Of a DNA stretch of 64,000 bases, positions 964 to 64,000 are shown one piece after another; position 1 is the stretch's first letter; each line of letters opens with the position of its first letter. Source of the stretch: Escherichia phage vB_EcoM_FB. A program made the position numbers and the translations under genes. The notes below the pieces were generated by a model. It was not told the DNA's origin. It made no database searches and worked only from the letters and a program-made list of their open reading frames with translations. The DNA lies in sequence record MT682711.1. One strand, 5' to 3'.

Positions 964-1023
964 AATATTTTCTCTCATTTGGTTGGTAGATGTATTATAA
1001 ATCAATATTTTAAAGCACTTAAT

Positions 1024-44122: not shown

Positions 44123-44134
44123 CTCGGAGGCACT

Positions 44135-44737: not shown

Positions 44738-45249
44738 TGTTTTATTACGTCTATAAAATAACCAATATAATTAATGGTAAATTTTATATCGGTGCTCATA
44801 GTACATCAAATATGGATGACGGTTATATGGGCTCAGGTAAATTAATTAAACGCGCTATACTAAAATACGGCATTGAAAATTTCAAAAAAGAAATATTAAA
44901 ATTTGTTGATTCTAAAAAAGAAATGTATGAACTCGAAAAAGAACTTGTTGTCCTTACTGAAAATTCATACAATTTAAAACCGGGCGGTTCCGGTGGGTTT
45001 TTAAAACATGATAACTTTAAAGGCAGGTCCCATAGTCAGAAAACCAAAGATATTATGAGCGCTAATAACTCAGGCAAAAACAATCCTATGTATGGTAGAA
45101 AACGAGACCAACACGGAGAAAAAGCACCTAATTATGGTAAAAAGTGCTCTGAGGCTAAAAGAAAATTACTTTCTGAAAAATCTAAATCCTATTTTGAAAA
45201 CCTTCAAACCATAACTAAAAAATCTCGGCTTTGGTCCTACATCGGTTGA
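44737..45249 (+). CDS. GIY-YIG homing endonuclease (Seg-like)
   Basis: FYYVYKITNIINGKFYIGAHS GIY-YIG motif, [14 protein letters not shown]-like Gly/Lys repeats. Confidence 0.8.
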   Translation: MFYYVYKITNIINGKFYIGAHSTSNMDDGYMGSGKLIKRAILKYGIENFKKEILKFVDSKKEMYELEKELVVLTENSYNLKPGGSGGFLKHDNFKGRSHSQKTKDIMSANNSGKNNPMYGRKRDQHGEKAPNYGKKCSEAKRKLLSEKSKSYFENLQTITKKSRLWSYIG

Positions 45250-45369
45250 AACTAGATATGTATCAAGACATATTAAAAAGCTAGGATTAGATTTTTATAA
45301 ATTTAATCGTGATATAACAGAAACTAATGTTTCCATAGTTAGAAATATTTTAGAACAAAGGAAAGCGCT

Positions 45370-47157: not shown

Positions 47158-47158
47158 T

Positions 47159-49222
47159 ATGAATTACTACGATAAAGTTGATGAAGTGGTAGGGACTGTA
47201 ACAAGTCCCTGTGATGACGCAGTAGGACCCGGTGAATATCGCCGGGTTAAATGGGAATTATATAACCCAACAGGTGCTTTTATTCAACCTGGGAATGGCG
47301 TTGAATGGGATACCGAGATTATTCCACTAGCTACACATTTATACACACAAAATCCATTTGGTAATAAGTCCGAAACTTTTCCTGCACCTCCCCCACCGGA
47401 AGATGGAACAAGTCAAGGTATCTGGTGTGCTAAACTCGGAATATTCTTTATTACGCAATTGGATTTAGAAAATTATGTAGAATCGATTGGTGCAACTCTT
47501 TTGCCCGGTAATGATTGGTACGGCGCTGATTTATCAAAATCTGTATTGTATAAAACATCTATTGAATATGATATGTATCGCATCGAAAACTGTGGCGGTG
47601 TATGGACATCACAAGGCCCCAGAATGGACCCCAGGACGATGATTGCAGTTACGGCTGATTATCATATGTATGTCAACTTTAACGGCCTTGGTGACTCCCG
47701 CAGGGCTTATTTGAAGTACTATGAGACAAAACCTTGTACTTATGTTGGACTGGTATTAAATCTAGATGTTGATACGAGTATCCCAGGAACTCCGATTCCG
47801 GGACCGGTATCCATCGGGTCTTTACCGCCAGAAATAACCGGGCGAGCCAGGGCAATAGGCTGTGTTCCTTTTACAGCGGAATTCCCTTACAACGGATTGA
47901 CCAATGCGATTATGGCTTCATGGAATACATCTAGGAATTCATTCAAATTATATTGGGATATGCTCCCTGGATGGCCATCATCTGGTGGAACCGATTGGGA
48001 AAAATTCTTCGATTCTGGTTATAGTAAGCTATCGGTCGCAATGGAAGAGCTAGGCAACTCAGCTGTTGCTATGTGTCAATATGTTCAGCAAATGGCTTTT
48101 CTTGCATTTAAAGATGCCATATCACAGGTCTTGAATATTGTTGGCGGTGGGTGGGACTTACTTAAAAGCTTTTTACCCTCGATTACTATTATGGGCATGA
48201 CTATTGACCTAGAAGACCTCTGCACTTCAGGTGATGGTGTACAGAAATTAAAAGAAGCATGGAAAAACTTTAATTTAGAAGAAACCATCCAATCGATTTA
48301 TTCTGCCATTGGGTCTGCATACGATTATTCGGTTGAACGCGTCAAGATGTATTCGCGTGACCTTATTGATGCAATTACAGACTTGTATGACTGGGCCTGG
48401 TCTCAATTGCTTATGGCTGGTGTTGCATTATCAAAACTGTGTGTAGACCTCGCTCAAATATGGAGTATGCCTCCTATAGTTCCGAACCCAGTTTGGAGCG
48501 TTATTACTGCGGTCAAGGAAATGATGAAGCAAGTTAAACCACTGGACATGATAATGAGCGGTAACTTTCCAGGATTCACAGCATCAGATGTTTATCAAAT
48601 GGTTATGGAAAAGGTAGACCAGAAAATAGACGAAGCTTATGCAATGATTGAGGCTCTTAAAACCCAGGCACTCAATCTGTGGAATGAGATTAAGCTCAAA
48701 AAGCAAGAAGTACAAAAACAAGCTATTGAATTTAAACAATATCTTTCAGGAATGTACGAAAAAGTTACAGACGAGCTAACTGCTCAGAAGGAAGCCGCAT
48801 TAGCACAAGCTGAAGCTGCACTCGAACTTTTAAAGAATAAATATAATCAGATTAAGAACTCTATTACCGAAAGTCAAACCTCCGTTTCTGATGTATTAGA
48901 TATGGCTTTAGAAGAATTCAAAAAACTTCCTATTGTGGCTCAAATGGAAGAACTTCTCGGTATGCTCGGAGCTACTGTAGATGATATCATGGTTATATAC
49001 GAGAACTCAGTAACTAAAGCAAAATCTTTATATCACGAATTTACTGATGGTTCCAGGTCAATGAAAGACTTGTGCAAATCAATGTATAACCAAATATCAA
49101 CATTATCCTTAAGTAAGGTGGTACAATGGATTAATAAGATGCTGGGAATATTCGGTTTAACGATTGCATTTCCATCCCTTTCCATTTGCATACCTTGTTT
49201 AGAATCTCCTACTAGGAATTAA
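47159..49222 (+). CDS. large protein of unknown function between genes 5 and 6
   Basis: 687-codon ORF; ATG overlaps gp5 stop (TAATATG), ends 1 nt before gene 6 ATG; no motif recognised. Confidence 0.6.
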   Translation: MNYYDKVDEVVGTVTSPCDDAVGPGEYRRVKWELYNPTGAFIQPGNGVEWDTEIIPLATHLYTQNPFGNKSETFPAPPPPEDGTSQGIWCAKLGIFFITQLDLENYVESIGATLLPGNDWYGADLSKSVLYKTSIEYDMYRIENCGGVWTSQGPRMDPRTMIAVTADYHMYVNFNGLGDSRRAYLKYYETKPCTYVGLVLNLDVDTSIPGTPIPGPVSIGSLPPEITGRARAIGCVPFTAEFPYNGLTNAIMASWNTSRNSFKLYWDMLPGWPSSGGTDWEKFFDSGYSKLSVAMEELGNSAVAMCQYVQQMAFLAFKDAISQVLNIVGGGWDLLKSFLPSITIMGMTIDLEDLCTSGDGVQKLKEAWKNFNLEETIQSIYSAIGSAYDYSVERVKMYSRDLIDAITDLYDWAWSQLLMAGVALSKLCVDLAQIWSMPPIVPNPVWSVITAVKEMMKQVKPLDMIMSGNFPGFTASDVYQMVMEKVDQKIDEAYAMIEALKTQALNLWNEIKLKKQEVQKQAIEFKQYLSGMYEKVTDELTAQKEAALAQAEAALELLKNKYNQIKNSITESQTSVSDVLDMALEEFKKLPIVAQMEELLGMLGATVDDIMVIYENSVTKAKSLYHEFTDGSRSMKDLCKSMYNQISTLSLSKVVQWINKMLGIFGLTIAFPSLSICIPCLESPTRN

Positions 49223-49223
49223 A

Positions 49224-51182
49224 ATGGCTACTCCTACGAATTACCAATTAACAAGAACCGTTAACGCTATCCCAAAAGTATTTGTGGGAGCTACGTTTGA
49301 AGAGATTAAAAAGAATATTATTGATTGGCTTTCTAGCCAGGACGAATTTAAGGATTACGATTTCGTTGGTTCGCGAATGAATATCCTGATTGACATGTTA
49401 GCTTACAACACCCTGTATATGCAGCAGTTTGCTAATACCGCGGTATATGAATCTTTCATCGGTACCGCTAACTTGCGTTCCTCCGTCGTCCAGGCTGCAC
49501 AGGATAACGGCTATTTGCCAAGTTCTAAATCAGCAGCCAAAACAAGTATCATGTTGACCTGTACCCAAGCCCTGAATGAAAAGAATATTCGTATCCCGCG
49601 TGGTACTAAATTCTTGGCCTATGCCCGTGATACTTCAGCAGACCCGTATGCTTTTGTTACCACGGAAAACGTTATTGCCGTACGTGATGTTAATAACCAA
49701 TATCTTCCTATCGTATCTTTAGCACAAGGTCGTATTATCCGTACTGAACTTAAGTATGACCCTAAAACTCCTATTCTTATTCGTGACCCGGATATTGATA
49801 GACAGGAAGTTAAACTTTATGTCGATGGCGCAGAATGGACTAACTGGACTAATAAATCCATGGTTCATGCTGGTAGTACATCAACAATTTACTATATGCG
49901 TGAAACCGTAGATGGTAATACTGAATTCTTCTTTGGTGAAGGTGTTGCTGAAAAATCAGTTGCAGGTGGGGTATTAGAAGCTAATTATATTGGTGGTTTA
50001 AAACCTGTTAAAGATGCTACCATTGTTATAGAATACCTTCGTACAGATGGTGAAGTTGCTAACGGGGCAGTGGACTTTAGTTATGCGGATTCTTTGGCAT
50101 ATATTACGGTTGAAAAAATTACAGAAAACTACGATGAAAACCCGGATTATGTAGGTGCTGACGGTGGTGGTGACCCTGAAGATATTGAACGTATTCGTGA
50201 ACTTGCTGTAGTTAAACGTGAAGCCCAGATGCGTGCTGTAACCGGTACAGATTATGATACATTCGTTTCGGAGCGATTTGGTTCTATTGTACAAGCAGTA
50301 CAAACCTTTACAGACCCAAATAAACCAGGTTATGCCTTTGTTACCATTAAACCTAAATCAGGATTGTATTTGACTGCGGTTCAACGCGAAGATATCCAAA
50401 ATTATCTTTCAGAATTTAACTTGGCACCTATTACCCCTTCGGTTATTTCTCCTGACTACTTGTTCTTGAAGCATAAAATTAAGGTTTCATATGCACTGAA
50501 CAAATTACAGGAATCCGAACAATGGTTAACGGCTCAAATCCTTTCCCAAATAGACCGTTATTATATTAACGAAGTTGAAATATTCAACCACGGATTTGCC
50601 AAGTCTAAAATGCTGACTTATATTGATAATGCAGACCACAGTATCCTTGGCTCTTCGGCTACGGTAACAATGGTTCGCGAGGTATTAAACTTCTTCAAAA
50701 CACCTGAAGCGGGTATTAAATACTATAATCAATACACCAACCGTTCTGTAACTTCTAGTGAATTTGAGTTCGTCCCAACAAACGTATCGGATGTTGTTAA
50801 ATCTTACAACGTACGTATTGTTGCCACAGATAAAGACGAACGAGGCGATGGTAAAATGGTTATAGGTCCTTTCCGACCTGGCGATGTAATTGAAAACCAA
50901 TACATCCAACCTTACACCGGAGATGACTTTGATAAAATGGCAGCGCCTGCAGACCAATCAGTCTACTATGTTATTGGCGAAATTGATTATTACTCAGATT
51001 TTATTTTCTGGGATATTGCCGCAATAGGCCTTACTTCCGACCGTTTTGAAGTCCAGTCTATTGAACTGTATGCAGGGCCAGACCAAGACAACATCTTTAC
51101 CAAAGACGGTTCTTTAATCGTATTTGAAGATGACCTTCGTCCTCAGTACACAACTATAGAGTTGGAACCAATTACAATATAA
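49224..51182 (+). CDS. 6: baseplate wedge protein gp6
   Basis: MATPTNYQLTRTVNAIPKVFVGATFEEIKKNI..LAYNTLYMQQF matches T4 gp6 N-terminus as recalled. Confidence 0.85.
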   Translation: MATPTNYQLTRTVNAIPKVFVGATFEEIKKNIIDWLSSQDEFKDYDFVGSRMNILIDMLAYNTLYMQQFANTAVYESFIGTANLRSSVVQAAQDNGYLPSSKSAAKTSIMLTCTQALNEKNIRIPRGTKFLAYARDTSADPYAFVTTENVIAVRDVNNQYLPIVSLAQGRIIRTELKYDPKTPILIRDPDIDRQEVKLYVDGAEWTNWTNKSMVHAGSTSTIYYMRETVDGNTEFFFGEGVAEKSVAGGVLEANYIGGLKPVKDATIVIEYLRTDGEVANGAVDFSYADSLAYITVEKITENYDENPDYVGADGGGDPEDIERIRELAVVKREAQMRAVTGTDYDTFVSERFGSIVQAVQTFTDPNKPGYAFVTIKPKSGLYLTAVQREDIQNYLSEFNLAPITPSVISPDYLFLKHKIKVSYALNKLQESEQWLTAQILSQIDRYYINEVEIFNHGFAKSKMLTYIDNADHSILGSSATVTMVREVLNFFKTPEAGIKYYNQYTNRSVTSSEFEFVPTNVSDVVKSYNVRIVATDKDERGDGKMVIGPFRPGDVIENQYIQPYTGDDFDKMAAPADQSVYYVIGEIDYYSDFIFWDIAAIGLTSDRFEVQSIELYAGPDQDNIFTKDGSLIVFEDDLRPQYTTIELEPITI

Positions 51183-51209
51183 GCCTCTTCGGAGGTTTAA
51201 GGAGATTTA

Positions 51210-54200
51210 ATGTCTGTACAAGCGCCTTATGTTACTAGTCTGAGAATTGATAAACTCTCGGCCAACCATGTGAGCATTCTTTGGGATGACGTAGGCGCCA
51301 ACTTCTATTATTTCGTAGAACTGGCCCAAACGAAGGATGCGGGTGTAGAAATTCCCGACGATAGATTATTTTGGAGAAATTTAGGTTACACCCCTAATAA
51401 CGAATGGTTTGAAGAGGCATTCATTTCTCCTAATTCATTTTATAAAATGCGAGTTGCGGTGGCCGCCCAGGGGTTTGAGCAGTCTGAATGGGTTTACACT
51501 GAAGAATTTGAAACTTTCTCTACCAACGCATATACATTTGAGCATATGCGCGAATTCGCGTTGTCTAATAAATTTATTGAAGAAAAATTCACAAAAAATA
51601 ATCAGAATTATGTGAACTTTAATACTGACGCCATTATGGCTTCTTTGATGAGTGAAGATTTTAACTTTACGCCAGCGTATTCGCATTTGTCATCTATATC
51701 AAATTATGTTTTAAAAGCCGACCGTTTCCATGAAATCCAAGGAAGCATCCAAGCGGTTTGTAAAGACCCTAAACGTTCTATTTTAATGGAACTTGGTGGT
51801 GTACTTTACCTTTTAGAAAGATTCCAAAGTACCGCTAAGGTTTCTAATGATAAAGGGCAGAACTGGCATTATATCCGTTTGTTTAATGACCGAGTAGGTA
51901 ACCCTGTTTCGCGTACAGCACATTACCAAACTGAAACTACTACGTATGTTCTAGGTTATGACCAAATATTTTACGGACGTAAATCAAGTGATATTCGTTG
52001 GTCTGCCGACGATGTCCGTTTTAGCTCTCAAGATGTAACATTTGCTAAAATAGGTAGTGATATCGACCTTCCATTTGAAATCGAGATATTTGGTTCTTAT
52101 GCAAAACTTCCTTTGCCTATTTCCACTATTGCTGAAGCTATATGCGCTTCTGACGATTTCATTTATGTTGCAGGTAGAGACAGAGTTTATAAAGCAAAAA
52201 CATCTGAGGCTCCTATAGACACCGACCCTAGTTCTCCGACTTATGGAGAGAAGATATTTGAAAGCGGATATTCAACTATCACAGGGAACCCTAAAGCAGT
52301 TTGTTATAAATTAGATTCTATCCAAGGCCGTACATTTGCTTTAATTACAGGTGAAGTTAAAGAAGAAAAAATGGACCCTACGGTCGAATCCAATGTGGTT
52401 GATTCTGAATCCAAAGGTGTTTATTGGTTAGACACTTCAACTGATACATGGACTCGTGTATTTGGAAACACCGAAGAAGAACGTCGTCGTATAGAGCATG
52501 GGTATACCAGCATGTCTACCGACGGAGAGGAATTATTTTTCAGTTCAAGCAACTTTAGATATGAAGTAGAGGTTGATTCTGAGCTTCCTTTGGAATACCC
52601 TGAAATTGTCACCTCCGCCGTTAAATATGTTAAAGATGAACAATGGATTCACGATAAACATTATTTGATGATGAGTTTTAGGTCTAACTCTAAATCCGAT
52701 TTCAAAGAATTTAAACCTGGGCGTATGGCTTATTATGCCGAACCATTCTTTAGTTGGTCTCGACGCGATGGAACCCGTTCATGGATTACCACCGGTGACC
52801 ATGCGATGGTTGTTTATAACGATGCTTTATACCAGAAAATTATCGACCTGAACAGTGGTTCTTCACCTGAACGTATTGTTCATGAGATTTGGAATAAAGG
52901 TTTTTGTAAAGTCACATCTCCTAATATAGAGTTCAACGGCTTTAAGAAATATTCTTCTGGAATGATGATTCACAAATCTACAGGTGAATTGGTTGGATAT
53001 TTTGAATTCGACTATCGTGTACGCGATGAAGTCCGTGTTATTTGGAAGCCTAAAGAAATTATGTTTACGGCTGAATTGCAAAACCAAGAACATGAAATCC
53101 CGTGGAAACCTAAAGAGGAAGTTGGTGAGCAAGACCCGGACCTCCAGCCTTTACTGGTTAAAATGATTCCAGATAGTTATTTGCTTCAAGATAGCAACTT
53201 TGAAAAATTCTGTGAATACTATCTCCAATTTATTAGTGATGGCTCAGGTACACACTATAATAATTTGTTGAATCTTATTCGTAACCAATACCCACGTGAA
53301 GAAGATTCATGGGAATATTTGTGGTCGGAAATCTATAAGCGTAATATCTATTTGTCGAAAGAAAAACGCGACGAAGTAGTTCGTTTTTTCCAGGCGCGCC
53401 AAACCGATTTTTGGTCTACAAAAGGTACCGAAGCTTCATATAAATTCCTGTTTAAATTGCTTTACAATGAAGATGTAGAAATTGATATCGAGTCCAAGAA
53501 CTCTATCGAATATGATATCATCGTAGAATCTGATAATATCAGTGAAGATATCGTAGGCCAAACGATTTATACTCCTACAGGTCGTAGTAATGTTACTTAT
53601 ATAGAACGAAATTACAAAGATGGTAAACTGCAATGGCGTTTAACCATTCATAATCTTTTAGGTCGTTTTATAGTCGGACAGGAAATTAAATCTGAACGTA
53701 CTTCGTTCAAGGGTATGATTGTTCAGGGCGTACGTGGTAAAGAGCTTTTGAGTAACAATATCGACTATATCAACCGTAACCGTTCTTATTATGTGATGAC
53801 CATTAAGTCTAATCTCCCTACTTCTCGTTATCGCAACGATGTTTTGAGATTTGTTCATCCAGTAGGTTTCGGCTTTGTAGGTATAACTTTGCTTTCTATG
53901 TTCGTTAACGTAGGTTTAACGCTAAAACATACAGAAACTATTATTAATATCCTTAAGAACTACAAATGGGACTCAGGTTTGCCATCTGAATGGTATGATA
54001 GAGTTGCTGTAATAGGTTTTGATGGTAATATAGAACGAGACCCTAGAACAGGACTTCCGGTTTATAACGTTGGACCTAAAGCAGGAGAACCGTTTGATAT
54101 CCCTGCAGATTATGATGCGGAAAATGATTTCTCTGTATTCCAAGGTCAATTACCACACGAACGTATTAAAAAGCATAGTCCATTGTTTGACCAAAGTGCT

Positions 54201-54305
54201 GTGACCTTTGCCAATTGGCGTGCACTGGTTGATAAGCGTCTTAAAGACGATATTGGAAATCCTAGAGACCCTAAAGTTCCAACTCAGGTAAAAATTAATG
54301 ATTAA
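51210..54305 (+). CDS. 7: baseplate wedge initiator gp7
   Basis: 1031 aa at the T4 gp7 position and size. Confidence 0.8.
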   Translation: MSVQAPYVTSLRIDKLSANHVSILWDDVGANFYYFVELAQTKDAGVEIPDDRLFWRNLGYTPNNEWFEEAFISPNSFYKMRVAVAAQGFEQSEWVYTEEFETFSTNAYTFEHMREFALSNKFIEEKFTKNNQNYVNFNTDAIMASLMSEDFNFTPAYSHLSSISNYVLKADRFHEIQGSIQAVCKDPKRSILMELGGVLYLLERFQSTAKVSNDKGQNWHYIRLFNDRVGNPVSRTAHYQTETTTYVLGYDQIFYGRKSSDIRWSADDVRFSSQDVTFAKIGSDIDLPFEIEIFGSYAKLPLPISTIAEAICASDDFIYVAGRDRVYKAKTSEAPIDTDPSSPTYGEKIFESGYSTITGNPKAVCYKLDSIQGRTFALITGEVKEEKMDPTVESNVVDSESKGVYWLDTSTDTWTRVFGNTEEERRRIEHGYTSMSTDGEELFFSSSNFRYEVEVDSELPLEYPEIVTSAVKYVKDEQWIHDKHYLMMSFRSNSKSDFKEFKPGRMAYYAEPFFSWSRRDGTRSWITTGDHAMVVYNDALYQKIIDLNSGSSPERIVHEIWNKGFCKVTSPNIEFNGFKKYSSGMMIHKSTGELVGYFEFDYRVRDEVRVIWKPKEIMFTAELQNQEHEIPWKPKEEVGEQDPDLQPLLVKMIPDSYLLQDSNFEKFCEYYLQFISDGSGTHYNNLLNLIRNQYPREEDSWEYLWSEIYKRNIYLSKEKRDEVVRFFQARQTDFWSTKGTEASYKFLFKLLYNEDVEIDIESKNSIEYDIIVESDNISEDIVGQTIYTPTGRSNVTYIERNYKDGKLQWRLTIHNLLGRFIVGQEIKSERTSFKGMIVQGVRGKELLSNNIDYINRNRSYYVMTIKSNLPTSRYRNDVLRFVHPVGFGFVGITLLSMFVNVGLTLKHTETIINILKNYKWDSGLPSEWYDRVAVIGFDGNIERDPRTGLPVYNVGPKAGEPFDIPADYDAENDFSVFQGQLPHERIKKHSPLFDQSAVTFANWRALVDKRLKDDIGNPRDPKVPTQVKIND

Positions 54306-55302
54306 TTCTACAGTAGTTTATCGTTCTATTGTTACTTCAAAATTTAGAACGGAAAAAATGTACAACTTTTACAGAACAATAGGTGATGGTGAAGACCAGA
54401 ACACCATGTATGTATCTTTCGGAAGGGCCCGACCATGGGCCGATAACGAAAACGACCCAGGTTTTGCCCCGCCATATCCTGTAGATGATTCTGAAGGCGT
54501 AGAAGACGTCTGGACAAACATGATGGGATGCGTTAAGGTTTATAAGAGCATGTTGGATTGTGTTGTCCCGCGCAAAGACTGGGGCGATACCTCTTATCCT
54601 AATCCGTTTACTTTCCAGATTGGTGAAATTGTAGTGGCGAACAGCCAGCCGCAAAACCGTACTGATGTCGGTGCCGGGTGGATGGTTTATCGTTGTGTAG
54701 ATATCCCAGAATCAGGTACATGTTCTATTTTGTCCCTTGATAATAAAACTGAGTGTATTAAACTTGGTGGTAAATGGACCTCAAATGTACAGTCGGTTAA
54801 AGCTCCAGCAGGTCAAGGTGATACGGAAGGTATGGTTGATACGGGTGATGGGTATCTCTGGGAATATTTGTATGAGATTCCACCTGATGTAAGTATTAAC
54901 CGTTGCACTAATGAATATATCGTGGTTCCATGGCCAGAAGAAATTGCCGAAGACCCGGAACGTTGGGGATACGAGAATAACCTTACTTGGCAGCAAGACG
55001 ATTATGGATTGATTTATCGTATTAAAGGCAATACCATTCGTTTTAAAGCATTCTTAGATTCAGTTTACTTCCCTGAATTTAGTCTTCCTGGTAACAAAGG
55101 ATTTAGACAGCTTTCGATAATCTCTAATCCATTAGAAGCTAAAGCTCACCCATCCGATCCGATCATTAAAGCCGAAAAAGAGTACTATGATGTTATAGAC
55201 CTCTCCCGCCATTCAGGTGAAATGATTTATATGGAAAACCGTCCTCCGGTTATTCGTTCCATGGACCAAACAGAAGAAATTAACATTATCTTCGAATTCT
55301 AA
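54298..55302 (+). CDS. 8: baseplate wedge protein gp8
   Basis: 334 aa; VYRSIVTSKFRTEKM..INRCTNEYIVVPWPEE matches T4 gp8 as recalled. Confidence 0.85.
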   Translation: MINSTVVYRSIVTSKFRTEKMYNFYRTIGDGEDQNTMYVSFGRARPWADNENDPGFAPPYPVDDSEGVEDVWTNMMGCVKVYKSMLDCVVPRKDWGDTSYPNPFTFQIGEIVVANSQPQNRTDVGAGWMVYRCVDIPESGTCSILSLDNKTECIKLGGKWTSNVQSVKAPAGQGDTEGMVDTGDGYLWEYLYEIPPDVSINRCTNEYIVVPWPEEIAEDPERWGYENNLTWQQDDYGLIYRIKGNTIRFKAFLDSVYFPEFSLPGNKGFRQLSIISNPLEAKAHPSDPIIKAEKEYYDVIDLSRHSGEMIYMENRPPVIRSMDQTEEINIIFEF

Positions 55303-55304
55303 TA

Positions 55305-55329
55305 AGGGCCGCAAGGCCCTTTCGGGTTT
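55305..55329 (+). terminator. weak terminator-like hairpin after gene 8
   Basis: GGGCC-GCAA-GGCCC then TTTCGGGTTT; followed by near-consensus late box TAATAAATA. Confidence 0.35.
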
Positions 55330-55363
55330 AATAAATACAGTATATCAATAATGAGGCATACCT

Positions 55364-56224
55364 ATGATTAAGCAAACTGGTAAAGAACTAATTGACGTCG
55401 GTGAAATTGGTAATGCCAGCACCGGCGACATTCTTTATGATGGCGGTGTTAAACTGAACACTGACTTAAACAACATATATAATACTTTCGGCGACCAACG
55501 CAAAACTGCTTTAACTGGTGAATTAACCGGTCAGAAATTACACGCTACAGGTTATTATCAAAAATTTGGTGATATGGACCAAGCAAGCTCAGTAGATTTA
55601 GGCTCTTTGGTGGATATCGATGCTTCTACCGGTTCTATCGTATTAACCACTGTAAAAGGTGCAGTCGGTGAAGGAATCGAGATTATCAACTCTAACGGGA
55701 GTATTTCTTCCACTAATTATCTTGAAATCCGTATATTGGATACTTTTGCAAGCCATTCAACTTCGACTTTGCGTATCGTAACACCCTATACACGGGTTCT
55801 TTTATGGTGTGTATCGGATACAAACGGCGTTGCAGTATGGGATTATTCAATTGAAAGTATGTTTGGTGATAAACGAGTTCCATTAAATAAGACATATAAT
55901 ATATCTTCTGTCGCTCGTGATATTCCGGTGGTTTATTCCGGCCAGTATTCATTGGTCAAACTTTTAGTTACGGCAGTGAATGCCAACGAAACCATTTACA
56001 AAGCTTCAGAATATCTTGTGTTTATCGACAACCAAGCTAAAAAGATTTATTCCACCGAATACGCTGTTATTAAACGTGGGCAAACTTCAGATGATGACGA
56101 AATTTATTCCCTAGATTTTAAATTCGATACATCAAACTATATTATCGCGACCGCTTCTTCTGTCAATCCTATGAGGCTTGCAATTAAGGTCGTAGAAACC
56201 CAAACTATTGGAGTTCCAGTATAA
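55364..56224 (+). CDS. 9: baseplate wedge / long-tail-fibre socket protein gp9
   Basis: 286 aa; LIDVGEIGNASTGDILYDGG matches T4 gp9 as recalled. Confidence 0.85.
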   Translation: MIKQTGKELIDVGEIGNASTGDILYDGGVKLNTDLNNIYNTFGDQRKTALTGELTGQKLHATGYYQKFGDMDQASSVDLGSLVDIDASTGSIVLTTVKGAVGEGIEIINSNGSISSTNYLEIRILDTFASHSTSTLRIVTPYTRVLLWCVSDTNGVAVWDYSIESMFGDKRVPLNKTYNISSVARDIPVVYSGQYSLVKLLVTAVNANETIYKASEYLVFIDNQAKKIYSTEYAVIKRGQTSDDDEIYSLDFKFDTSNYIIATASSVNPMRLAIKVVETQTIGVPV

Positions 56225-58035
56225 TGAAACAAGACTTAAAAGTAGGTTCCGCTGTTGATGACGGGTCCGGTGATTACCTGCGTGCAGGTGGTCTTAAAAT
56301 TAATAACAACTTCAATGAGCTTTATTACCAATTAGGTGATGGCAACAACCCTCATGCAGCAGGCGCTTGGAAACAGCATTCTACTGCAGATGGTGCTTTG
56401 TTGAACGCTGTAATGGGTCATAGCTATACCCTTAATACTCAAGGTGGGCGTATTAACGTTCAGCTTCCTAAAGGCTCTCCTGAAGAATATAACTTTGTTA
56501 TCCGTGTACGTGATGTGTATTCCTCATGGCAAGCTAACCCTGTAACCCTAATCCCTGCCACGGGTGATACCATTAAGGGTTCAGCTACTCAAGTAGAAAT
56601 TGCTCGCAACTTCTCGGACCTTGAATTAGTTTATTGTGCCCCAGGACGATGGGAATACGTTGAAAATAAGCAAGTAAACCGTATTCCAAATAACGACCTC
56701 GCTACTGTAGCAACTAAGCAGTTTATTGCCACTGAAGGCCAAACAGATTTTCTAGACATTTTCCCAGGGCTTTCTTATAACGTAGCAAGTTTAAGCGTTT
56801 CGCAACGTGGTAACAATTTGTTCTACGGTGTTGATGATATTTTTGATGCGGCTACTGCAGAGTTCGGTTCTCCGGGTGCTCAACCAGGCGAATTGGTTGC
56901 CTTGAATGGTAAAGACATCCGTTTAAAATATCCTTGTGAAGCAGGTGATACTGTTATTATCAAATCATATAATGACGGGCTTGCTCAATGGCGCAGTTCT
57001 TATAACCGCCGTGATATAACAATCCAAAGTTCAGAATTGACTAAAAACGTTTCTGTTCCTGGTTCTTCTTTCGTGGCTGATTTGAATACTTCGCATGTTA
57101 TATCGGCCGCAGATTTGAATATTTCTGTTAACAGCCCTATCAACCCAAATGCTTGTCAAGTCATGCTTAATAGCACATTACTTCATCAAGCGGGTACAGC
57201 AGGACTTCCTTCGTTTTATTGTGAAGGTGCTGATGGTCGTACTGCTACCGAGTGTTTTAATGCTGGTGGTCAATGGACCCAATCTAAATCAGATTATATT
57301 TTTAATTTGACTCCTGAAGACAAGATTGAATCTATTGAATTTGGACGTAACTTTGAACACGGCGATATTCTTACAGTAATTTGGTACAATAATGATATCG
57401 GTACCACCATGGAAATTGATGAGATTTTGGATTATACCAACAACATCTATATTTCTAAAGGGCCTTCTATCGATATAACAGGTCAAGTTCGTATCACTGA
57501 TGTAGATAATCCTTTTGCACCTAACGTTGAACCGGTCGCCGCGTCCAATATTACAATAGATACAGCAGCAACGTTTTTTGATTTGGTCTATCCAATAGGA
57601 ACCATCTATGAGAATACGGTGAACCCTAATAACCCTAAAACTTATATGGGCTTTGGTTCATGGAAGCGTTTATCTGATGTGTTCTTGGTAGGTTGGTCTC
57701 CAGACGCAGCTTCTTTGTTTAATGCAAATAATAACGATCTGGATTCTGCTGGTATTCCACAGTCAACTGCCGGTGGTACTGGTGGTGCTCATGTGGCTAA
57801 TTTGAAATATGAGAATATCCCTGAACTTAATACCGATGATAAAGTCCTTATTGCTGATAACGATGGCCCTATTTTTGTAGGTGGATGTTTAGTTGACCCT
57901 GATTCACAAGGACCGGCTTATACAAAATATCGTGAAGATAAAGCCAGTATTAATAAGGCTCAAGGAACCACTCCTATCCCGGTTAATACTCTACCACCAT
58001 ACTTAACTGTTCATCGCTGGATGAGGATTGCATAA
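56224..58035 (+). CDS. 10: baseplate wedge / tail pin protein gp10
   Basis: 603 aa at T4 gp10 position and size. Confidence 0.8.
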   Translation: MKQDLKVGSAVDDGSGDYLRAGGLKINNNFNELYYQLGDGNNPHAAGAWKQHSTADGALLNAVMGHSYTLNTQGGRINVQLPKGSPEEYNFVIRVRDVYSSWQANPVTLIPATGDTIKGSATQVEIARNFSDLELVYCAPGRWEYVENKQVNRIPNNDLATVATKQFIATEGQTDFLDIFPGLSYNVASLSVSQRGNNLFYGVDDIFDAATAEFGSPGAQPGELVALNGKDIRLKYPCEAGDTVIIKSYNDGLAQWRSSYNRRDITIQSSELTKNVSVPGSSFVADLNTSHVISAADLNISVNSPINPNACQVMLNSTLLHQAGTAGLPSFYCEGADGRTATECFNAGGQWTQSKSDYIFNLTPEDKIESIEFGRNFEHGDILTVIWYNNDIGTTMEIDEILDYTNNIYISKGPSIDITGQVRITDVDNPFAPNVEPVAASNITIDTAATFFDLVYPIGTIYENTVNPNNPKTYMGFGSWKRLSDVFLVGWSPDAASLFNANNNDLDSAGIPQSTAGGTGGAHVANLKYENIPELNTDDKVLIADNDGPIFVGGCLVDPDSQGPAYTKYREDKASINKAQGTTPIPVNTLPPYLTVHRWMRIA

Positions 58036-58700
58036 TGACTTTAACTGAAATGAAAAGCGGGTTAAAATCCCGCTTAGCCGATTATTTGGAATTATCTTAC
58101 ACTAGTGACAAGCCTACTGCTGTCGCTGACCAACGTCCTATCGGTGGGCCTTCTGCAAACCAAACCCAGAAGGGTGTTTATTTTCCTACAGTCCAAAGTG
58201 CAATAGATGATATTGCATTTAGAACAGAGCTTCCTGTGAACTCCGTTATTATTACCACAGAAAACAGAGCACCTGGATTTATTCAGCAATCTGATAAAAT
58301 TACATTTACCGGTTCTATTTCTTCAGGCGGTGAACTTGGCGACCCGGTTATTATTAAAGTGTTCGGACTTCCTGTAGAGGTCTTAGTTGGCGATTCATCT
58401 GTATTGGTTGCATCTAAAGTAAATGATGTGTTTTTAGACGCTATTGCTAATAGCTATATTTTAGCCGAAACTGCTATTGATGCCTTAGACCAATCTACCT
58501 TGAATATTAAATACAATGACTATCAGAATCATATTTTTTCACCATATAAACAATCGGGTTGTACAATTTCCCATACTATAGTCCAACAGCCAAGGGCTGG
58601 ATACGGTAAGTGGGAATACTTAGGTAACTCTACCCAATCGTTAGCAGGTGGTACAGTTAACGGCACGATTCCTTTATATTACTATAAGAGATTATATTAA
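58035..58700 (+). CDS. 11: baseplate wedge / short-fibre attachment protein gp11
   Basis: 221 aa at T4 gp11 position and size. Confidence 0.75.
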   Translation: MTLTEMKSGLKSRLADYLELSYTSDKPTAVADQRPIGGPSANQTQKGVYFPTVQSAIDDIAFRTELPVNSVIITTENRAPGFIQQSDKITFTGSISSGGELGDPVIIKVFGLPVEVLVGDSSVLVASKVNDVFLDAIANSYILAETAIDALDQSTLNIKYNDYQNHIFSPYKQSGCTISHTIVQQPRAGYGKWEYLGNSTQSLAGGTVNGTIPLYYYKRLY

Positions 58701-60226
58701 TGTCAACAAACACACTAAAACACATTAGTGATAAATCGGAATTCAAATCATTCGACCCTACTGGGTCGAATTTCCCGCCTGATATTACTAATGTTCAAGA
58801 AGCATTGGCAACTATTTCATTAATCGGCGTCACAGGTAATGTTCCTTCAGCTACAGAAACGTCCCAAGGCATTATTCGTCTTGCCACAACACAAGAAGTA
58901 ATGGATGGTCTGGATGCTTATAGTGCAGTGACACCGGCAACTTTAAAAGCCCGTTTAGATATTCCTACTCAGGCAACAGAAACTTATGTAGGTATCACCC
59001 GTTATGCTACTAATGCTGAAGCTATAGCAGGCACAGAGCCCCAGGCTGCAATCGTAGCAACCTCTTTGAAAGCGGTAATGGATTATACATTTGAGAACCG
59101 TTTATCAACAGAGAACGCCACAGGCGTTATCAAGATTTCAACTACACCTGCCGCATTAGCTGGTACCGATGATACCACAGCAATGACCCCACTTAAAGTA
59201 TCTCAGGCAATTGGTGCAGCGACGGCCGCGTTACCGGTTTATTCTACAGCAACGACTACAAATGAAGGTTTAGTTCGTTTAGCGACCAATGCAGAGGTTG
59301 GTAATGGAAGTCTTTCGGTAGGTATCGCTATTTCTCCGGCAGGATTAGCCACATTAACTTCCACCGAAGAACGAAGCGGTATTATTAAACTCGCAGGTTG
59401 GGATATGGTATCTAATGGTACCGACCATACCGCCGCAGTTACACCGGCTTCTTTGTTAGCTCGTACAGGTAATACTGGACGTATTGGGTTGGTTCGTTTA
59501 TCTACTACTGTAGGCCAAGGCGATGGTAATACGGCGCTGGCTTATAATGCTAACGTTATTTCTACTTCAGGCGGCGAAATATGGGGTACTTTAAACGTTA
59601 ATGGAGCATTACGTCGTAATGGTGTTGATGTTGTTACCCATGACCAATTATCAGATAGCGTTCCGGTGGGTACTATTTGCATGTGGGGTGGCAATGAAGG
59701 TAATATACCTGGTAAATGGCGTGCTTGTGTAGGTGGGACTTACACTGGTGGTGCATATTTAAATGCTGTTGGCGGGCGTTGGGGATGGTGGGGTGCTATT
59801 CCAGATTTCCGTGGATTATATCCTCGTGGCGCTAACATGGTCGGTGGATATTCTGAAGGCGAAGTTAACCCGCATATTGCCGGTAACCGAGGAGAAGACG
59901 GTAAAGGTAAAGCCCGTTTAGGTAATGGTGTTGGTTCTTTCCCGCAATCTTCCGTTCAAGCCCAAGCATTACGTTATCATAAACATGCTGGTGGTTTTGG
60001 TGAACATGATAACTATGGCGCTTTTGGTAACACCGCTAACTCCGGATATGTTGGTACTCGTAAAGGCCTTGACTGGGATAACCGTAGTTATTATACCAAC
60101 GAAGGTTTTGAGACCACCGATCCTTGGAACCGTGATGGACATACCACATTGAATAGTGAAGGTCTTATTGCCAACGAAACACGTCCATGGACAATGTCCG
60201 TTCTTTTTATTATTAAAGTAGAATAA
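58700..60226 (+). CDS. 12: short tail fibre protein gp12
   Basis: C-terminal YHKHAGGFGEHDNYGAFGNT..GTRKGLDWDNRSY..NETRPW as in T4 gp12. Confidence 0.85.
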   Translation: MSTNTLKHISDKSEFKSFDPTGSNFPPDITNVQEALATISLIGVTGNVPSATETSQGIIRLATTQEVMDGLDAYSAVTPATLKARLDIPTQATETYVGITRYATNAEAIAGTEPQAAIVATSLKAVMDYTFENRLSTENATGVIKISTTPAALAGTDDTTAMTPLKVSQAIGAATAALPVYSTATTTNEGLVRLATNAEVGNGSLSVGIAISPAGLATLTSTEERSGIIKLAGWDMVSNGTDHTAAVTPASLLARTGNTGRIGLVRLSTTVGQGDGNTALAYNANVISTSGGEIWGTLNVNGALRRNGVDVVTHDQLSDSVPVGTICMWGGNEGNIPGKWRACVGGTYTGGAYLNAVGGRWGWWGAIPDFRGLYPRGANMVGGYSEGEVNPHIAGNRGEDGKGKARLGNGVGSFPQSSVQAQALRYHKHAGGFGEHDNYGAFGNTANSGYVGTRKGLDWDNRSYYTNEGFETTDPWNRDGHTTLNSEGLIANETRPWTMSVLFIIKVE

Positions 60227-60235
60227 GGGTAAAAA

Positions 60236-61825
60236 ATGATTAACAAATTGGAACTTAGTGAGTTACCATTTGTTGACGGCGTACCTGATGCTCCTCAAAA
60301 GCGTATCCAATGGATACGCGAGGGTGATTGTATGTCTGCAGCAAAAACAAAATACGGCAATGAAGGTAATTTGAACGCTGCTGCTTTAGGAGTTCAGAAA
60401 AACGTTGAAGCTCTTGATGCGAATGATTTGAAAACCGCAGATAAAGTTAACGAACTGGTAGAAAACGTTAATAATATCAATGATGCCTTAGAAATGGCTA
60501 CGGATATTTCCGTCATCCAACAAATTGAGAAAACCCGTGTTGATATCGTAGAGCTTAAGAGAGTAGAAGGCGAAACCACTACTGGGCTAAACAATTTAAC
60601 CATAAATTTAGACCACCTAAAAGAAGACGTTGGTTACCATGACCCTTTACAAGATGGCCCATATTTAACTGTACGTGAAAATATTGTTCTTCTTAAAACC
60701 GAAATAGGTCATTATGAAAACCAGGATATAAATGGTAATCCGTTGCCTCCTGGTGAAACCAGCGAAGCCACCGGTATGAAACGTCGCATCATTGATAATA
60801 CCACTCAATTGGTCGACCATCGTCTTCGCATTGATACCCTTGAAAGGAATTATGAAGATTCTGACGTCGGGCAACTAGGTATTAAATTAAATGAAATTCG
60901 TGCTGAACTTGGGCCCCATTCCGATACGGTAGGTAAACAACAGGCTTATACCCGAATTTCTGTATTAGAAACGGCTGCAATTAATTTCAATACATCTATC
61001 GACGAAATTAAGACTAATATTGATTTCTCCGGTATGCCTATAAAGGACCGAGTAACTACTTTAGAAAGCAAAACTCTTACCCTAGAAAATTCAGTCAACG
61101 TTGATTTAAAACCTCGTGTAACATCAATTGAAACCCAAATAGGTTCTGAATCAACTCCTACTTCTATTAATGGACGTTTAAGCGGTCTTCGTACTGATGT
61201 AAATGACCTTAAAACCATAGTGGGTGTTAGTTCAAGTGATGGCTTACGTTTCCAAGTTACTGATATCAACCGCCGTTTAGGTAGTGAAGTATCTCCGGCA
61301 GCTGGGACCATTAATAAGCGTTTAAATGACGTTATTATCCAAGCAAACCAATCTACTTCATCTATCCAGGATATTCAAGTAGAAATTGGAAATAACCAAT
61401 CCGGTATTAAGGGTACTTTACTTAAACTCACCAATAAGGTTGACGGGACAAACCCTAACGGTACTACTGTAGAAGAACGTGGTCTTATTAACGCGGTTAC
61501 TTCTTTAGAAACCCAGATGTTAGGTAAGTTGAATGATGCCCCTTCCGATGGTAAGCTTTATGCTCGTCGTAATGCTACGTGGACCGAAGTTCCTAACGTT
61601 TCTACTGAAATAGGGACCGTTAAAGCTGATTTAGTTGTTACCGATGGTAATGTGGCAGCTTTAACTTCTAGAGTTACTACAGCAGAAGATAAAATCACTG
61701 CATTAGAAACTGAACTTGCTAAACGTCCACCAGTGGCTCCAGTTGCTGATGGACTTCCATATGTTCTTGTTGATAATGCGTGGGTGCTATTGTCAGATTT
61801 TGTGACTTTAAACCCAGCACCATAA
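60236..61825 (+). CDS. wac: fibritin (whisker antigen control) with foldon-like C-terminus
   Basis: N-terminus ..LPFVDGVPDAP..; long coiled-coil; C-terminal ..DGLPYVLVDNAWVLLSDF foldon-like. Confidence 0.8.
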   Translation: MINKLELSELPFVDGVPDAPQKRIQWIREGDCMSAAKTKYGNEGNLNAAALGVQKNVEALDANDLKTADKVNELVENVNNINDALEMATDISVIQQIEKTRVDIVELKRVEGETTTGLNNLTINLDHLKEDVGYHDPLQDGPYLTVRENIVLLKTEIGHYENQDINGNPLPPGETSEATGMKRRIIDNTTQLVDHRLRIDTLERNYEDSDVGQLGIKLNEIRAELGPHSDTVGKQQAYTRISVLETAAINFNTSIDEIKTNIDFSGMPIKDRVTTLESKTLTLENSVNVDLKPRVTSIETQIGSESTPTSINGRLSGLRTDVNDLKTIVGVSSSDGLRFQVTDINRRLGSEVSPAAGTINKRLNDVIIQANQSTSSIQDIQVEIGNNQSGIKGTLLKLTNKVDGTNPNGTTVEERGLINAVTSLETQMLGKLNDAPSDGKLYARRNATWTEVPNVSTEIGTVKADLVVTDGNVAALTSRVTTAEDKITALETELAKRPPVAPVADGLPYVLVDNAWVLLSDFVTLNPAP

Positions 61826-61828
61826 TAA

Positions 61829-61848
61829 AAGGGCTTCGGCCCTTTTTT
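61829..61848 (+). terminator. rho-independent terminator after wac
   Basis: AAGGGC-UUCG-GCCCUU hairpin followed by six U. Confidence 0.65.
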
Positions 61849-61850
61849 GC

Positions 61851-61858
61851 TATAAATA
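61851..61858 (+). promoter_or_regulatory. late promoter TATAAATA for gene 13
   Basis: Exact TATAAATA 22 nt upstream of gene 13 ATG. Confidence 0.6.
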
Positions 61859-61879
61859 CGGTTATTAGAGGAATAAACC

Positions 61880-62815
61880 ATGGCAAGTGAATCATATAAC
61901 CCTAAGCAACTCAAGGACGCAATCCTGCGCCGCCTGGGTGCACCGATTACGAATATTGAAGTAACTACAGACCAAGTATACGATTGCATCCAGCGCGCCC
62001 TGGAGCTCTACGGTGAGTATCATTATAACGGCTATAACAAAGGTTATCAGGCTTTTTATATAGGCCATGATGACGAAGAAAAATTCCGTAACGGCGTATT
62101 TGACCTTAAAGGCCGTAATATATTTGCAGTAACACAAATTTTAAGAACTAATGTGGGTTCTTTAACATCTATGGATGGCCAAGCGACTTATCCATGGTTT
62201 ACTGATTTTGTATTAGGCCTAGCTGGTATTAATGGCGGTCTTGGAACTTCTTGTAATAGCTTCGGACCTAATGCCTTCGGCGCTGACCTCGGTTATTTTA
62301 CACAATTAATGCAATATCGTTCTATGATGCAGGACCTTTTGGTTCCATTGCCTGATTATTGGTATAACGATGCCACCGAACAATTGAAGGTAATGGGTAA
62401 CTTTGTTAAAGGTGATTTTATTGTAATTGAAGTTTATACTCGCTCTTTTAATGGGGTTGATTCTATGGTAGGAAATACCGCAGGATATGGATATGCCTCT
62501 GGCGGGTGCGACGAAAATGAATGGAGTCCTGGAGCTATTTGGGATAACCCGGCCCGTCGTATTTCAGGTATGAGGGCAGGTGAAGACCTTGGTTTGCAAG
62601 ATGGTTCATATAATAACCGTTGGGTCAAAGATTATGCGACGGCATTGGTTAAAGAAGTCAATGGTAATATTTTGGCCAAACACCAAGGCATGCAACTTGC
62701 GGGTGGAACCACTGTAGATGGTATTCGATTGATTGAAGAAGCTCGTTTAGAAAAAGAACGCCTTCGCGAAGAATTAGATTTACTCGACCCACCAACACCT
62801 ATTTTAATTGGATAA
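61880..62815 (+). CDS. 13: neck protein gp13
   Basis: [38 protein letters not shown] matches T4 gp13 as recalled. Confidence 0.85.
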
Positions 62816-62817
62816 TT

Positions 62818-63462
62818 ATGAACTATAATAAGATTTACAAATCTTTAATAAATAAGGGCCTCGAAAGAGGTCTAAATAAAAAGAAGGTAGGGTTTTATAC
62901 AGAGAAGCATCATATTGTCCCTAAATCCATGGGTGGTAGTGAAGACAAATCTAATTTTGTTCTTTTAACCGCTAGAGAACATTTTGTAGCTCATCAATTA
63001 TTGTATAAAATACACAAAAACCGTTCTATGGCCCATGCTATGATTAATATGTGTGCTGATAGCACAGGTAATAGGGTTAATTCTAAGTTATTAGATTGGC
63101 ACCGTAAAGCTAAGGCTAGGGCCCAAAGCGAGATGGTTTCAGGTGAAAACCATCCTATGTATAACAAGAAACATAAAAAAGAAACATTAGAAAAAATGAG
63201 ATTGGCCAAATTAGGCGTCCCATGGACTGAAGAAGTTAAGGAATCTAGAAGAGAAGAATTACTTAAAACCTCTGAACATGCTAGGACTTTCATCGACTAT
63301 AAATCTGGCGGAGAAAATTCAGCCGCAAAGAAAATATGTATAGAAGGTATAGTATTTGATTATATGGAAGAAGCGGTTCCTTGGTGTAATATATCAAGAA
63401 GAACTCTTTTAAATAGAATCAAATCTTCAGACCCTAAATGGAGGGATTGGAATTATGTCTAA
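62818..63462 (+). CDS. HNH homing endonuclease (Mob-like)
   Basis: [32 protein letters not shown]; starts 3 nt after gene 13 stop, overlaps gene 14 start. Confidence 0.75.
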
Positions 63463-64000
63463 CACTTTTGATTCAAGCTTATTTGCTAGGCTTGAGGATG
63501 GTTCAGGTTACGTTAATACAAATAAAAGCGAAATTCTCAATCCGTTCGTCAACTTTTATCGCCATGAGAATACTCAAACATTGGCCGATGCTTTAGTTGC
63601 AGAATCTATCCAAATGAGGGGAATTCCTTTATATTATATCCCTAGACAGTATGTTAAGCCTGACCAATTGTTCGGCGAAGACCTCCAAAACAAGTTTACA
63701 GTGGCCTGGAAATTTGCAGGTTATTTGGATTCCTTTGAAGGTTATTCCGGTGACAATACTTATTTCAGTAAGTTCGGTATGATGGTTAATGATGAAGTAA
63801 CAATCACAATTAACCCTAACCTTTTTAAACATCAATGCAATGGCACTGAACCTGTTTCAGGTGATTTGATTTATTTCCCAATGGACAACAGCCTATTCGA
63901 AATTAACTGGGTACAACCTTACGACCCATTCTATCAAGTAGGAGCTAACGTCCAGCGGCGCATCACCGCTACCAAGTTCATTTACAATGGTGAAGAACTT
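63455..64000 (+). CDS. 14: neck protein gp14, N-terminal part (gene runs past window end)
   Basis: ..[49 protein letters not shown] matches T4 gp14 as recalled; no stop before 64000. Confidence 0.8.

Follow-up and report, generated by a model that had tools for sequence, protein, structure and literature searches.

A predicted free-standing Mob-type HNH homing endonuclease gene at the junction of neck genes 13 and 14 of Escherichia phage vB_EcoM_FB

Free-standing homing endonucleases of T4-like phages and the co-conversion of neighbouring markers are textbook biology. Intronless homing by T4 SegF was reportedly described by Belle et al. in 2002. Here we report on a gene of this kind in a 64,000-nucleotide (nt) stretch of Escherichia phage vB_EcoM_FB (sequence record MT682711.1; the whole stretch is hereafter called the window), where an open reading frame (ORF) of 214 amino acids (aa) at 62818-63462 on the plus strand separates neck genes 13 and 14. 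It is very probably a free-standing Mob-type HNH gene of a Bp7-like Dhakavirus, which would home by cleaving gene 14 and by co-converting a patch of that gene.

Among the described systems, T4 MobE, encoded between nrdA and nrdB, offers a close comparison (Wilson & Edgell 2009, PMC2790892). In nrdB, the nick made by MobE falls on the non-coding strand at nt 122-126, with recombination points within the first 189 nt, and an internal hairpin of mobE is a weak intrinsic terminator (PMC2790892). Free-standing endonucleases cut away from their insertion site, as reviewed in PMC2988022; the 2010 table of T4 endonucleases in this review lists none at the 13/14 junction, and T4 SegF is described there as a Seg/Mob ‘hybrid’ endonuclease. 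A literature search turned up no report of an endonuclease at this junction.

The window gene resembles mobE in many respects. Both proteins belong to PHROG 655, and in a tblastn search of 50,697 phage genomes the window protein was 38.9% identical over aa 1-177 to MobE from RB3 and T4-type phages. Both genes are intergenic and co-directional with their neighbours, start right at the upstream stop codon, carry a hairpin about 30-40 nt into the ORF and are linked to a divergent region at the 5′ end of the downstream gene. Like mobE, the window gene also seems to lack a promoter of its own. They differ in their target, which is nrdB for MobE and, by prediction, gene 14 for the window protein, in the C-terminal DNA-binding region, unrelated past about aa 177, in the U-tract that accompanies the mobE hairpin and in the transcript, early/middle for mobE versus presumably late for the window gene. 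The ORF is thus a predicted free-standing (‘intronless’) MobE-like HNH homing endonuclease gene of the T4 Mob type.

That this is a real gene and no chance frame is shown by its matches to PHROG 655 ‘homing endonuclease’ (E = 1e-48), to the NUMOD3 motif and, just below the respective cut-offs, to the HNH and I-TevI_DNA-bd families of Pfam. The HNH catalytic core was located at aa 28-59 (62899-62994, plus strand) from an alignment of 46 homologues, a strand-strand-helix arrangement in the AlphaFold model and matches to HNH domains. Residues Y27, E29, H31, H32, P35, G40, N46, T51, E54, H55 and H59 are invariant in the 46 homologues, and the motif is considered intact because the window protein retains all of them; the HH...N...H signature is represented by H31, H32, N46, H55 and H59. 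The motif was aligned by phmmer to solved HNH domains, and the HNH domains matched by phmmer or Foldseek include those of a group II intron maturase, Cas8-HNH and I-HmuI. The nuclease domain is followed, after a helical linker, by a NUMOD3 motif (PF07460, 30.4 bits against a cut-off of 20.4) at aa 104-128 (63127-63201, plus strand) and by a probable I-TevI-type helix-turn-helix DNA-binding domain at aa 164-213 (63307-63456, plus strand), the latter matched by PF20987 below its cut-off, by phmmer alignment to structure 1i3j and by Foldseek.

The AlphaFold model, built from the homologue alignment, had a mean predicted local distance difference test (pLDDT) score of 85. The core consists of strands at aa 28-32 and 47-51 and a helix at aa 52-66 (pLDDT of about 90-95), and the C-terminal half is helical. 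The top Foldseek match in PDB was the I-TevI DNA-binding domain 1i3j (probability 1.00, E = 4e-3); those to Cas8-HNH and I-HmuI 1u3e were weak (E of 0.3-0.9, probability 0.5-0.9). I-HmuI and I-TevI share with the window protein the order of a nuclease followed by NUMOD and helix-turn-helix modules, but both are intron-encoded, and the cysteine zinc finger of I-TevI has no counterpart here: the protein contains three cysteines (C69, C173 and C189), with no CxxC pair that would allow an I-TevI-style Cys4 finger. A GIY-YIG catalytic domain is likewise absent; the N-terminal half is HNH, and the likeness to a Seg-like protein of phage MX01 is restricted to aa 110-214. No Rfam family, and hence no group I intron or other structured RNA, was detected in 61500-64000, and since the ORF lies between a complete gene 13 and gene 14, the gene is free-standing.

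Gene 13 (neck protein/head-tail adaptor Ad2, T4 gp13; 311 aa; PHROG 211, E = 7e-41) occupies 61880-62815, and gene 14 (neck protein/head closure Hc2, gp14; Pfam T4_neck-protein PF11649, E = 1e-84; PHROG 679) occupies 63455-64000, where it is cut by the end of the window; both are on the plus strand. In the metagenome contig L014 gene 14 is complete and encodes 258 aa. The gene 13 stop codon TAA (62813-62815) is followed by a 2-nt spacer, TT, and then by the endonuclease ATG at 62818, the third base past the stop. The 3′ end of the endonuclease ORF reads ...TGG AAT TATGTC TAA and contains the gene 14 ATG (63455-63457), and as the endonuclease stop ends at 63462, the two genes overlap by 8 nt. 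The original prediction of a 214-aa HNH homing endonuclease that begins at the third base after gene 13 and shares its last 8 nt with gene 14 is borne out in its coordinates and, by the PHROG 655 and NUMOD3 matches and the intact HNH motif, supported as to the identity of the protein.

The empty junction in Bp7 and JS98 reads TAA-TT-ATG, therefore the endonuclease ATG sits at the position of the gene 14 ATG of relatives. The native gene 14 translation-initiation sequence ATTGGATAATTATG (62807-62820, plus strand), which Bp7 and JS98 share up to and including the ATG, now serves the endonuclease gene. The 3′ end of the latter recreates a near copy for gene 14: ATTGGAATTATG (63446-63457, plus strand), the right copy of an imperfect direct repeat, matches the left copy at 12 of 14 positions, and a putative Shine-Dalgarno-like sequence for gene 14, GGAGG (63440-63444, plus strand), lies in endonuclease codons W-R, 10 nt upstream of the ATG at 63455. 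The distance from the endonuclease ATG to that of gene 14 is 637 nt; compared with endonuclease-free relatives the region is 640 nt longer in all, as the gene 14 patch described below holds one extra codon.

The region is 89-95% identical to Dhakavirus phages such as JS98, Bp7, WG01, QL01 and IME281, and by its sequence the window is assigned to a Bp7-like Dhakavirus (JS98/Bp7-like). Gene 14 directly follows gene 13 in 37 of the best 40 phage records (match span 1478-1481 nt). Another of the 40, phage ESCO10, carries the insert of the window (95% across the 2121-nt query; protein 99%), and two rows, both MX01, hold a different 208-aa ORF at the junction. QLF81369.1 (‘hypothetical protein FB_0164’, Escherichia phage vB_EcoM_FB) has the same sequence as the window protein. 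Among ~15 billion proteins, three fall into its 90% cluster, and the next-best match among 5.8 billion cluster representatives covers half the length at 58% identity. A search of IMG/VR for further copies yielded no close one, only distant partial homologues (29-55%). Three further contigs, all from metagenomes (L014, L015 and L016), encode the identical protein.

We aligned the flanks of the window gene with ESCO10, MX01, Bp7, JS98, LQ5, PSD9, IME281 and ABTNLS3. On the left, 62555-62817 shows 0 mismatches to Bp7, LQ5, PSD9 and IME281, and the gene 13 flank is of the recipient (Bp7-like) type up to the junction. On the right, the first 249 nt of gene 14 (63455-63703, plus strand) form a foreign patch, with 67 differences from every endonuclease-free phage, Bp7 and LQ5 included, in 63458-63703 (27%, the extra codon included) and a longest run of identity to Bp7 of 17 nt. 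At the protein level the patch holds 13 substitutions and one insertion in 83 aa of gp14; most of the nucleotide changes are synonymous, which marks it as a functional gene 14 segment of a diverged lineage. Past the patch, at 63704-64000, the window is back to the Bp7 type (0-1 mismatch), and ESCO10 diverges from 63712.

Gene and patch remain together in copies whose surroundings differ. ESCO10 has 78 differences from the window in 897 nt of gene 13 (8.7%, the last at 62776), 5 in 935 nt of the cassette and 22 in the 289 nt that follow. L014 has 109 mismatches in 903 nt of gene 13 (12%), 0 over 62783-63711 and 18 in 289 nt thereafter. For L015 there are 68 in 62219-62761 and 0 from 62762 to the contig end at 63815, and for L016, 23 in 62594-62761 and 0 from 62762 to the contig end at 63780, so that in neither contig is any mismatch seen after the cassette. 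Across all copies, segment 62783-63711 is 99.5-100% identical and the flanks diverge by 6-12%, the opposite of what vertical descent leaves behind; the cassette moved recently between genomes. The patch is 100% identical in the window, ESCO10, L014, L015 and L016; the endonuclease genes of the window and ESCO10 differ by 5 nt, 3 of them non-synonymous and 2 synonymous. In a table of variable sites, three gene 13 3′ alleles (Bp7 type, L014/L015/L016 type and ESCO10 type) adjoin one cassette, and two gene 14 alleles follow it (the Bp7 type and one that resembles JS98 at 63712 and 63718). Informative sites to the left (62761, 62776, 62782) and to the right (63712, 63718) separate the backgrounds, with 0-5 mismatches inside, and so delimit a mobile cassette of endonuclease gene plus gene 14 patch (62818-63703, plus strand; 886 nt), which may extend by at most 35 nt to the left and at most 8 nt to the right.

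By comparison of genomes, this is a linkage of the co-conversion type, the 249-nt patch being joined to the gene in five copies and at least three backgrounds. The patch seems to travel with the endonuclease gene like a co-converted target allele, which presumably resists cleavage. The five natural copies bound the transferred unit within about 40 nt and predict a target in the first 249 nt of gene 14. An invasion between genes 13 and 14, adjacent in T4 as the original prediction had noted and likewise in RB14, JK38 and most relatives, is supported both by the precise empty site and by the horizontal spread of a defined unit. The prediction had named a comparison of junctions across relatives as its check, and universal presence of the gene at this site with no signature of insertion as what would speak against it; the gene is missing from 37 of the best 40 records, which points to insertion, and what we see is clearly a rare element with a sharp signature of insertion and co-conversion.

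A separate mosaic was observed inside gene 13 of L015 (contig positions 1249-2186, corresponding to window 61880-62817), with 0 mismatches in 61880-62218, 68 (12.5%) in 62219-62761 and then 0. This second recombination breakpoint has no connection with the edge of the cassette.

By analogy with MobE and the Seg enzymes, homing would proceed as follows. In a mixed infection the late-made enzyme would bind the endonuclease-free allele and nick or cut it within gene 14 nt 1-249. The break would be mended by the recombination-dependent repair of T4-type phages, with the endonuclease-carrying genome as template. With heterology or 27% divergence on both sides of the break, conversion would be resolved at the first good homology on either side (62817 and 63704), and gene and patch would be copied together. 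The carrier genome would be immune, its own gene 14 5′ sequence being the diverged patch.

The 13/14 junction is occupied by other endonucleases as well. Phage T6 has a 270-aa HNH endonuclease there (YP_010067306.1 as an example), and the full T6 segment including this gene was found in 47 of 506 matching records, mostly Tequatrovirus. The T6-type gene has the same insertion point as the window gene, and its N-terminal 107 aa, the HNH part, are 53% identical to the window protein; it differs in its unrelated, zinc-ribbon-like C-terminus, in its start, which overlaps the gene 13 stop (ATGA), and in the position of the patch, which lies in gene 13 and takes up its final 30 nt (10 mismatches to JK38 versus 0-1 elsewhere), the 5′ end of gene 14 being undiverged. 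In vB_EcoM_F1 (L011, 1501-2312) the T6-type gene is split into two ORFs of 154 and 106 aa; this copy looks decaying, which fits the homing-endonuclease cycle of invasion, decay and loss.

A third kind of occupant is Seg-like (MX01 ORF161, mogra_108, ‘segC’ of SP18 and others). The N-terminal half of MX01 ORF161 is 40% identical to T4 SegF, a GIY-YIG enzyme; Pfam missed the GIY-YIG domain in the MX01 protein, and a sequence search of the MX01 endonuclease against PDB gave no match. Homologues of ORF161 (55-61% identity) lie directly upstream of gene 14 in Mosigvirus and other genera, and in a search with mogra, 13 of 197 matching records covered at least 80% of the segment including the Seg-like gene. 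These proteins share with that of the window the junction, a gene 14 5′ patch, the NUMOD3 plus I-TevI-type domains (30-36% identity) and a ...PKW.(D/E)W.YV end overlapping the gene 14 start, but their nuclease is GIY-YIG, not HNH, and their patches measure about 50-92 nt versus 249 nt. In MX01 the patch spans gene 14 nt 1-92, with 21 mismatches to Bp7 followed by 0 for 350 nt; in mogra (Mosigvirus) it spans nt 1-50, with 16 mismatches to a20 in gene 14 nt 1-60 and essentially none thereafter, and gene 13 is free of any patch. The location of the patch follows the DNA-binding domain, the 5′ end of gene 14 for the I-TevI-type and the 3′ end of gene 13 for the zinc-ribbon type, which supports reading the patch as a marker of the target region. 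The 13/14 junction, essential and tightly packed among late genes, is a recurrent landing site for an HNH, a GIY-YIG and an apparently hybrid lineage in three genera.

In mogra (L021, 1192-1215 and 1800-1830) the Seg-like gene opens with the first codons of gene 14, ATGGCAAC, and a new gene 14 start is found at its 3′ end. The window repeat ATTGGA[TA]ATTATG at 62807-62820 and 63446-63457 is comparable to this arrangement, and the first insertions may have been directed by microhomology to the start of gene 14.

The window protein appears to combine two of these occupants. Its similarity to the T6-type protein stops at aa 107 and that to MX01 starts at aa 110, and the switch coincides with the start of NUMOD3; the C-terminal 107 aa of the MX01 protein are 30% identical to it. 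Searched separately, the N-terminal half (aa 1-107) matched 849 phage records, the best of which, after ESCO10, were all T6-type junction genes (53-54% identity, E = 1e-32). The C-terminal half (aa 108-214) matched 43 records; of the 39 non-self rows listed, 20 are annotated as overlapping a neck/head-closure gene, and nine more among those listed were assigned to the Seg-like family by identity and genome position. As the N-terminal half is closest to the T6-type and the C-terminal half to the Seg-like proteins, both residents of the junction, the protein looks like a chimera of same-site lineages. Tentatively, and with somewhat less than even confidence, we propose that the junction is a shared homing site for at least three lineages, where the window enzyme formed in situ from a T6-type HNH half and a gene-14-recognising Seg-like DNA-binding half.

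Module shuffling itself has precedent; the apparent same-site parentage is new. T4 SegF is free-standing, cuts a neighbouring gene, co-converts flanking markers and exemplifies Seg/Mob shuffling, but its nuclease is GIY-YIG; in the window protein the combination is reversed, with HNH joined to a DNA-binding domain of the Seg/I-TevI type. If the proposal holds, target specificity would stay with a DNA-binding module dedicated to the site while the catalytic module is swapped. HNH and GIY-YIG nucleases on homologous DNA-binding domains would then form a natural matched pair, with the same target gene and phage genus, in which the effect of nuclease chemistry on homing, tract length and competition could be probed.

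Several points weigh against homing by gene 14 cleavage or against the proposed origin of the enzyme. The Pfam matches to HNH (aa 28-50, 20.2 bits against 21.4) and to I-TevI_DNA-bd (23.5 bits against 27) are just under the curated cut-offs. Cleavage, strand specificity and target position are all drawn by analogy. The boundaries of the cassette alone are no proof of nuclease-driven conversion, as frequent general recombination could erode linked flanks and the divergence of the patch could block crossovers inside it, giving the same boundaries. The 5 differences between the window and ESCO10 are too few to show purifying selection. A donor of the patch was not found, either by distant blastn of gene plus patch against the 50,697 phage records or by a scan of IMG/VR with an 83-aa pattern; the closest sequences in these searches were ordinary Dhakavirus alleles (77% nt, 87% aa), and the donor lineage is unsampled. 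The identities of the half-proteins (53% and 30-36%) are modest, so that the chimera arose long ago or its parents are unsampled.

Some of these points would suit an inactive or decaying passenger, with gene and patch having entered once from a distant phage and then spread among Dhakavirus genomes by ordinary homologous recombination. T4-like phages recombine very frequently, a 27% divergence with no run of identity above 17 nt would by itself hold gene and patch together, decay occurs at the site, as in the split copy of vB_EcoM_F1, and the changes that separate the window and ESCO10 copies include more non-synonymous (3) than synonymous (2) ones. We nevertheless regard this as improbable. 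The ORF is intact in all five copies and keeps every family-invariant catalytic residue; the three metagenome copies are 100% identical in protein on different backgrounds, a sign of very recent spread; an 886-nt heterologous block of no benefit would more likely be lost than repeatedly gained; and three independent endonuclease families occupy the junction, each with an adjoining divergent patch. Homing by gene 14 cleavage and co-conversion of the patch therefore remains the preferred reading.

The surroundings of the gene also bear on its expression. A T4-type late promoter motif, TATAAATA (61851-61858, plus strand; function predicted from the motif), lies 22 nt upstream of the gene 13 ATG and is the sole exact match in 44,123-64,000. 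The interval from gene 13 to gene 14 showed no second TATAAATA motif, and a terminator scan gave no site in 61,880-63,455. The endonuclease gene thus looks like a promoterless cassette within a gene 13-14 late transcript, presumably started at the 61851-61858 motif, and this arrangement fits the earlier suggestion that it rides the late transcript.

An RNA hairpin, GGGCCUC-GAAA-GAGGUCU (62856-62873, plus strand; 7 base pairs, GAAA loop), is located 38 nt past the AUG (-13.8 kcal/mol, z = -3.4; 0 of 200 shuffled sequences were as stable). Scored for presence or absence only, as the 5′ arms pair in slightly different registers between homologues, a hairpin is also found at these codons in the T6-type, RB3 mobE, Proteus PM2 and Enterobacter KMB19 genes, with differing stem sequences (L009, 1536-1557; L017, about 298-319; L018 and L019, about nt 38-57 of the ORFs). 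Altogether, five of the seven MobE-family genes examined have a stable hairpin at codons 12-19, where the encoded residues are KGLERGL, RSLKRGL, RAQARE, RGLKRGL and RGRSRGL. Among the hairpin-bearing genes, mobE alone is known to terminate transcription with this structure; at the 13/14 junction the copies have no U-tract. The hairpin may be a conserved RNA-level control element of the MobE family. An intrinsic terminator at 62856-62873 was rejected for want of a U-tract and from a negative terminator scan; the missing U-tract fits an essential gene 14 that lies downstream with no promoter motif of its own. RNA structure masking the start of the endonuclease gene or of gene 14 was also rejected, as these regions fold no better than shuffled sequences (z = +0.6 and +0.2).

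The same features could point to a gene domesticated for a phage function, for instance in the processing of DNA during packaging or in the control of gene 14 through translational coupling and the hairpin. The gene is placed inside the late neck/terminase operon, its 3′ end now supplies the ribosome-binding sequence of gene 14, and the hairpin within it is significant. However, more than 90% of relatives do without the gene, the protein has the architecture of a site-specific homing enzyme with a long DNA-binding domain, and no link to terminase was seen, which makes domestication very unlikely. Least likely of all is a gene ancestral at the junction and deleted from most relatives: endonucleases do occur there in Dhakavirus, Tequatrovirus and Mosigvirus, but the occupants are three different families, the near-identity of the cassette within divergent flanks is contrary to vertical descent, the empty junctions are precise and identical across genera, with a 1-2-nt spacer and no deletion scar, and the patch that goes with the gene is foreign to every Dhakavirus allele of gene 14.

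Homing of the kind preferred here would have a practical side: between co-infecting phages in Dhakavirus/Tequatrovirus therapy cocktails, non-reciprocal transfer of markers near the neck genes is predicted. Although elements of this kind and the way they work are well known, the present family member is undescribed, and its GenBank labels, ‘hypothetical protein’ in vB_EcoM_FB and ‘baseplate hub subunit and tail lysozyme’ in ESCO10, are wrong and need correcting. The annotation of ESCO10 (L001, OM386655.1, 1-3849) appears shifted or wrong more widely, with gp14 given as ‘baseplate wedge subunit’, wac as ‘phospholipase’ and gp13 as ‘hypothetical protein’.

The window contains three Mob-type genes, as judged from their common membership of PHROG 655. 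The second MobE-family HNH gene (1262-1978, plus strand; 238 aa; E = 3e-66) is opposite in strand to its neighbours, an RNA-polymerase-binding gene (553-1005, minus strand) and a gp46/SbcC-like gene (1987-3666, minus strand), and has its own late-promoter motif TATAAATA at 1218-1225, 37 nt upstream. The C-terminus of its product carries repeated CPHC...WHFDNC motifs, and an ...HFDNC motif is also present near the C-terminus of the T6-type junction enzyme. The third HNH gene (25153-25884, minus strand; 244 aa; E = 3e-36) adjoins a regB-like endoribonuclease gene (25895-26350, minus strand).

Upstream of gene 13, the window wac gene for fibritin (60236-61825, 529 aa) is 100% identical to those of Bp7, LQ5, PSD9 and IME281. 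ESCO10, MX01, JS98 and ABTNLS3 have a longer wac (2163-2256 nt) that aligns over its 3′ part only, and the neck whisker is thus polymorphic in length or sequence within the genus.

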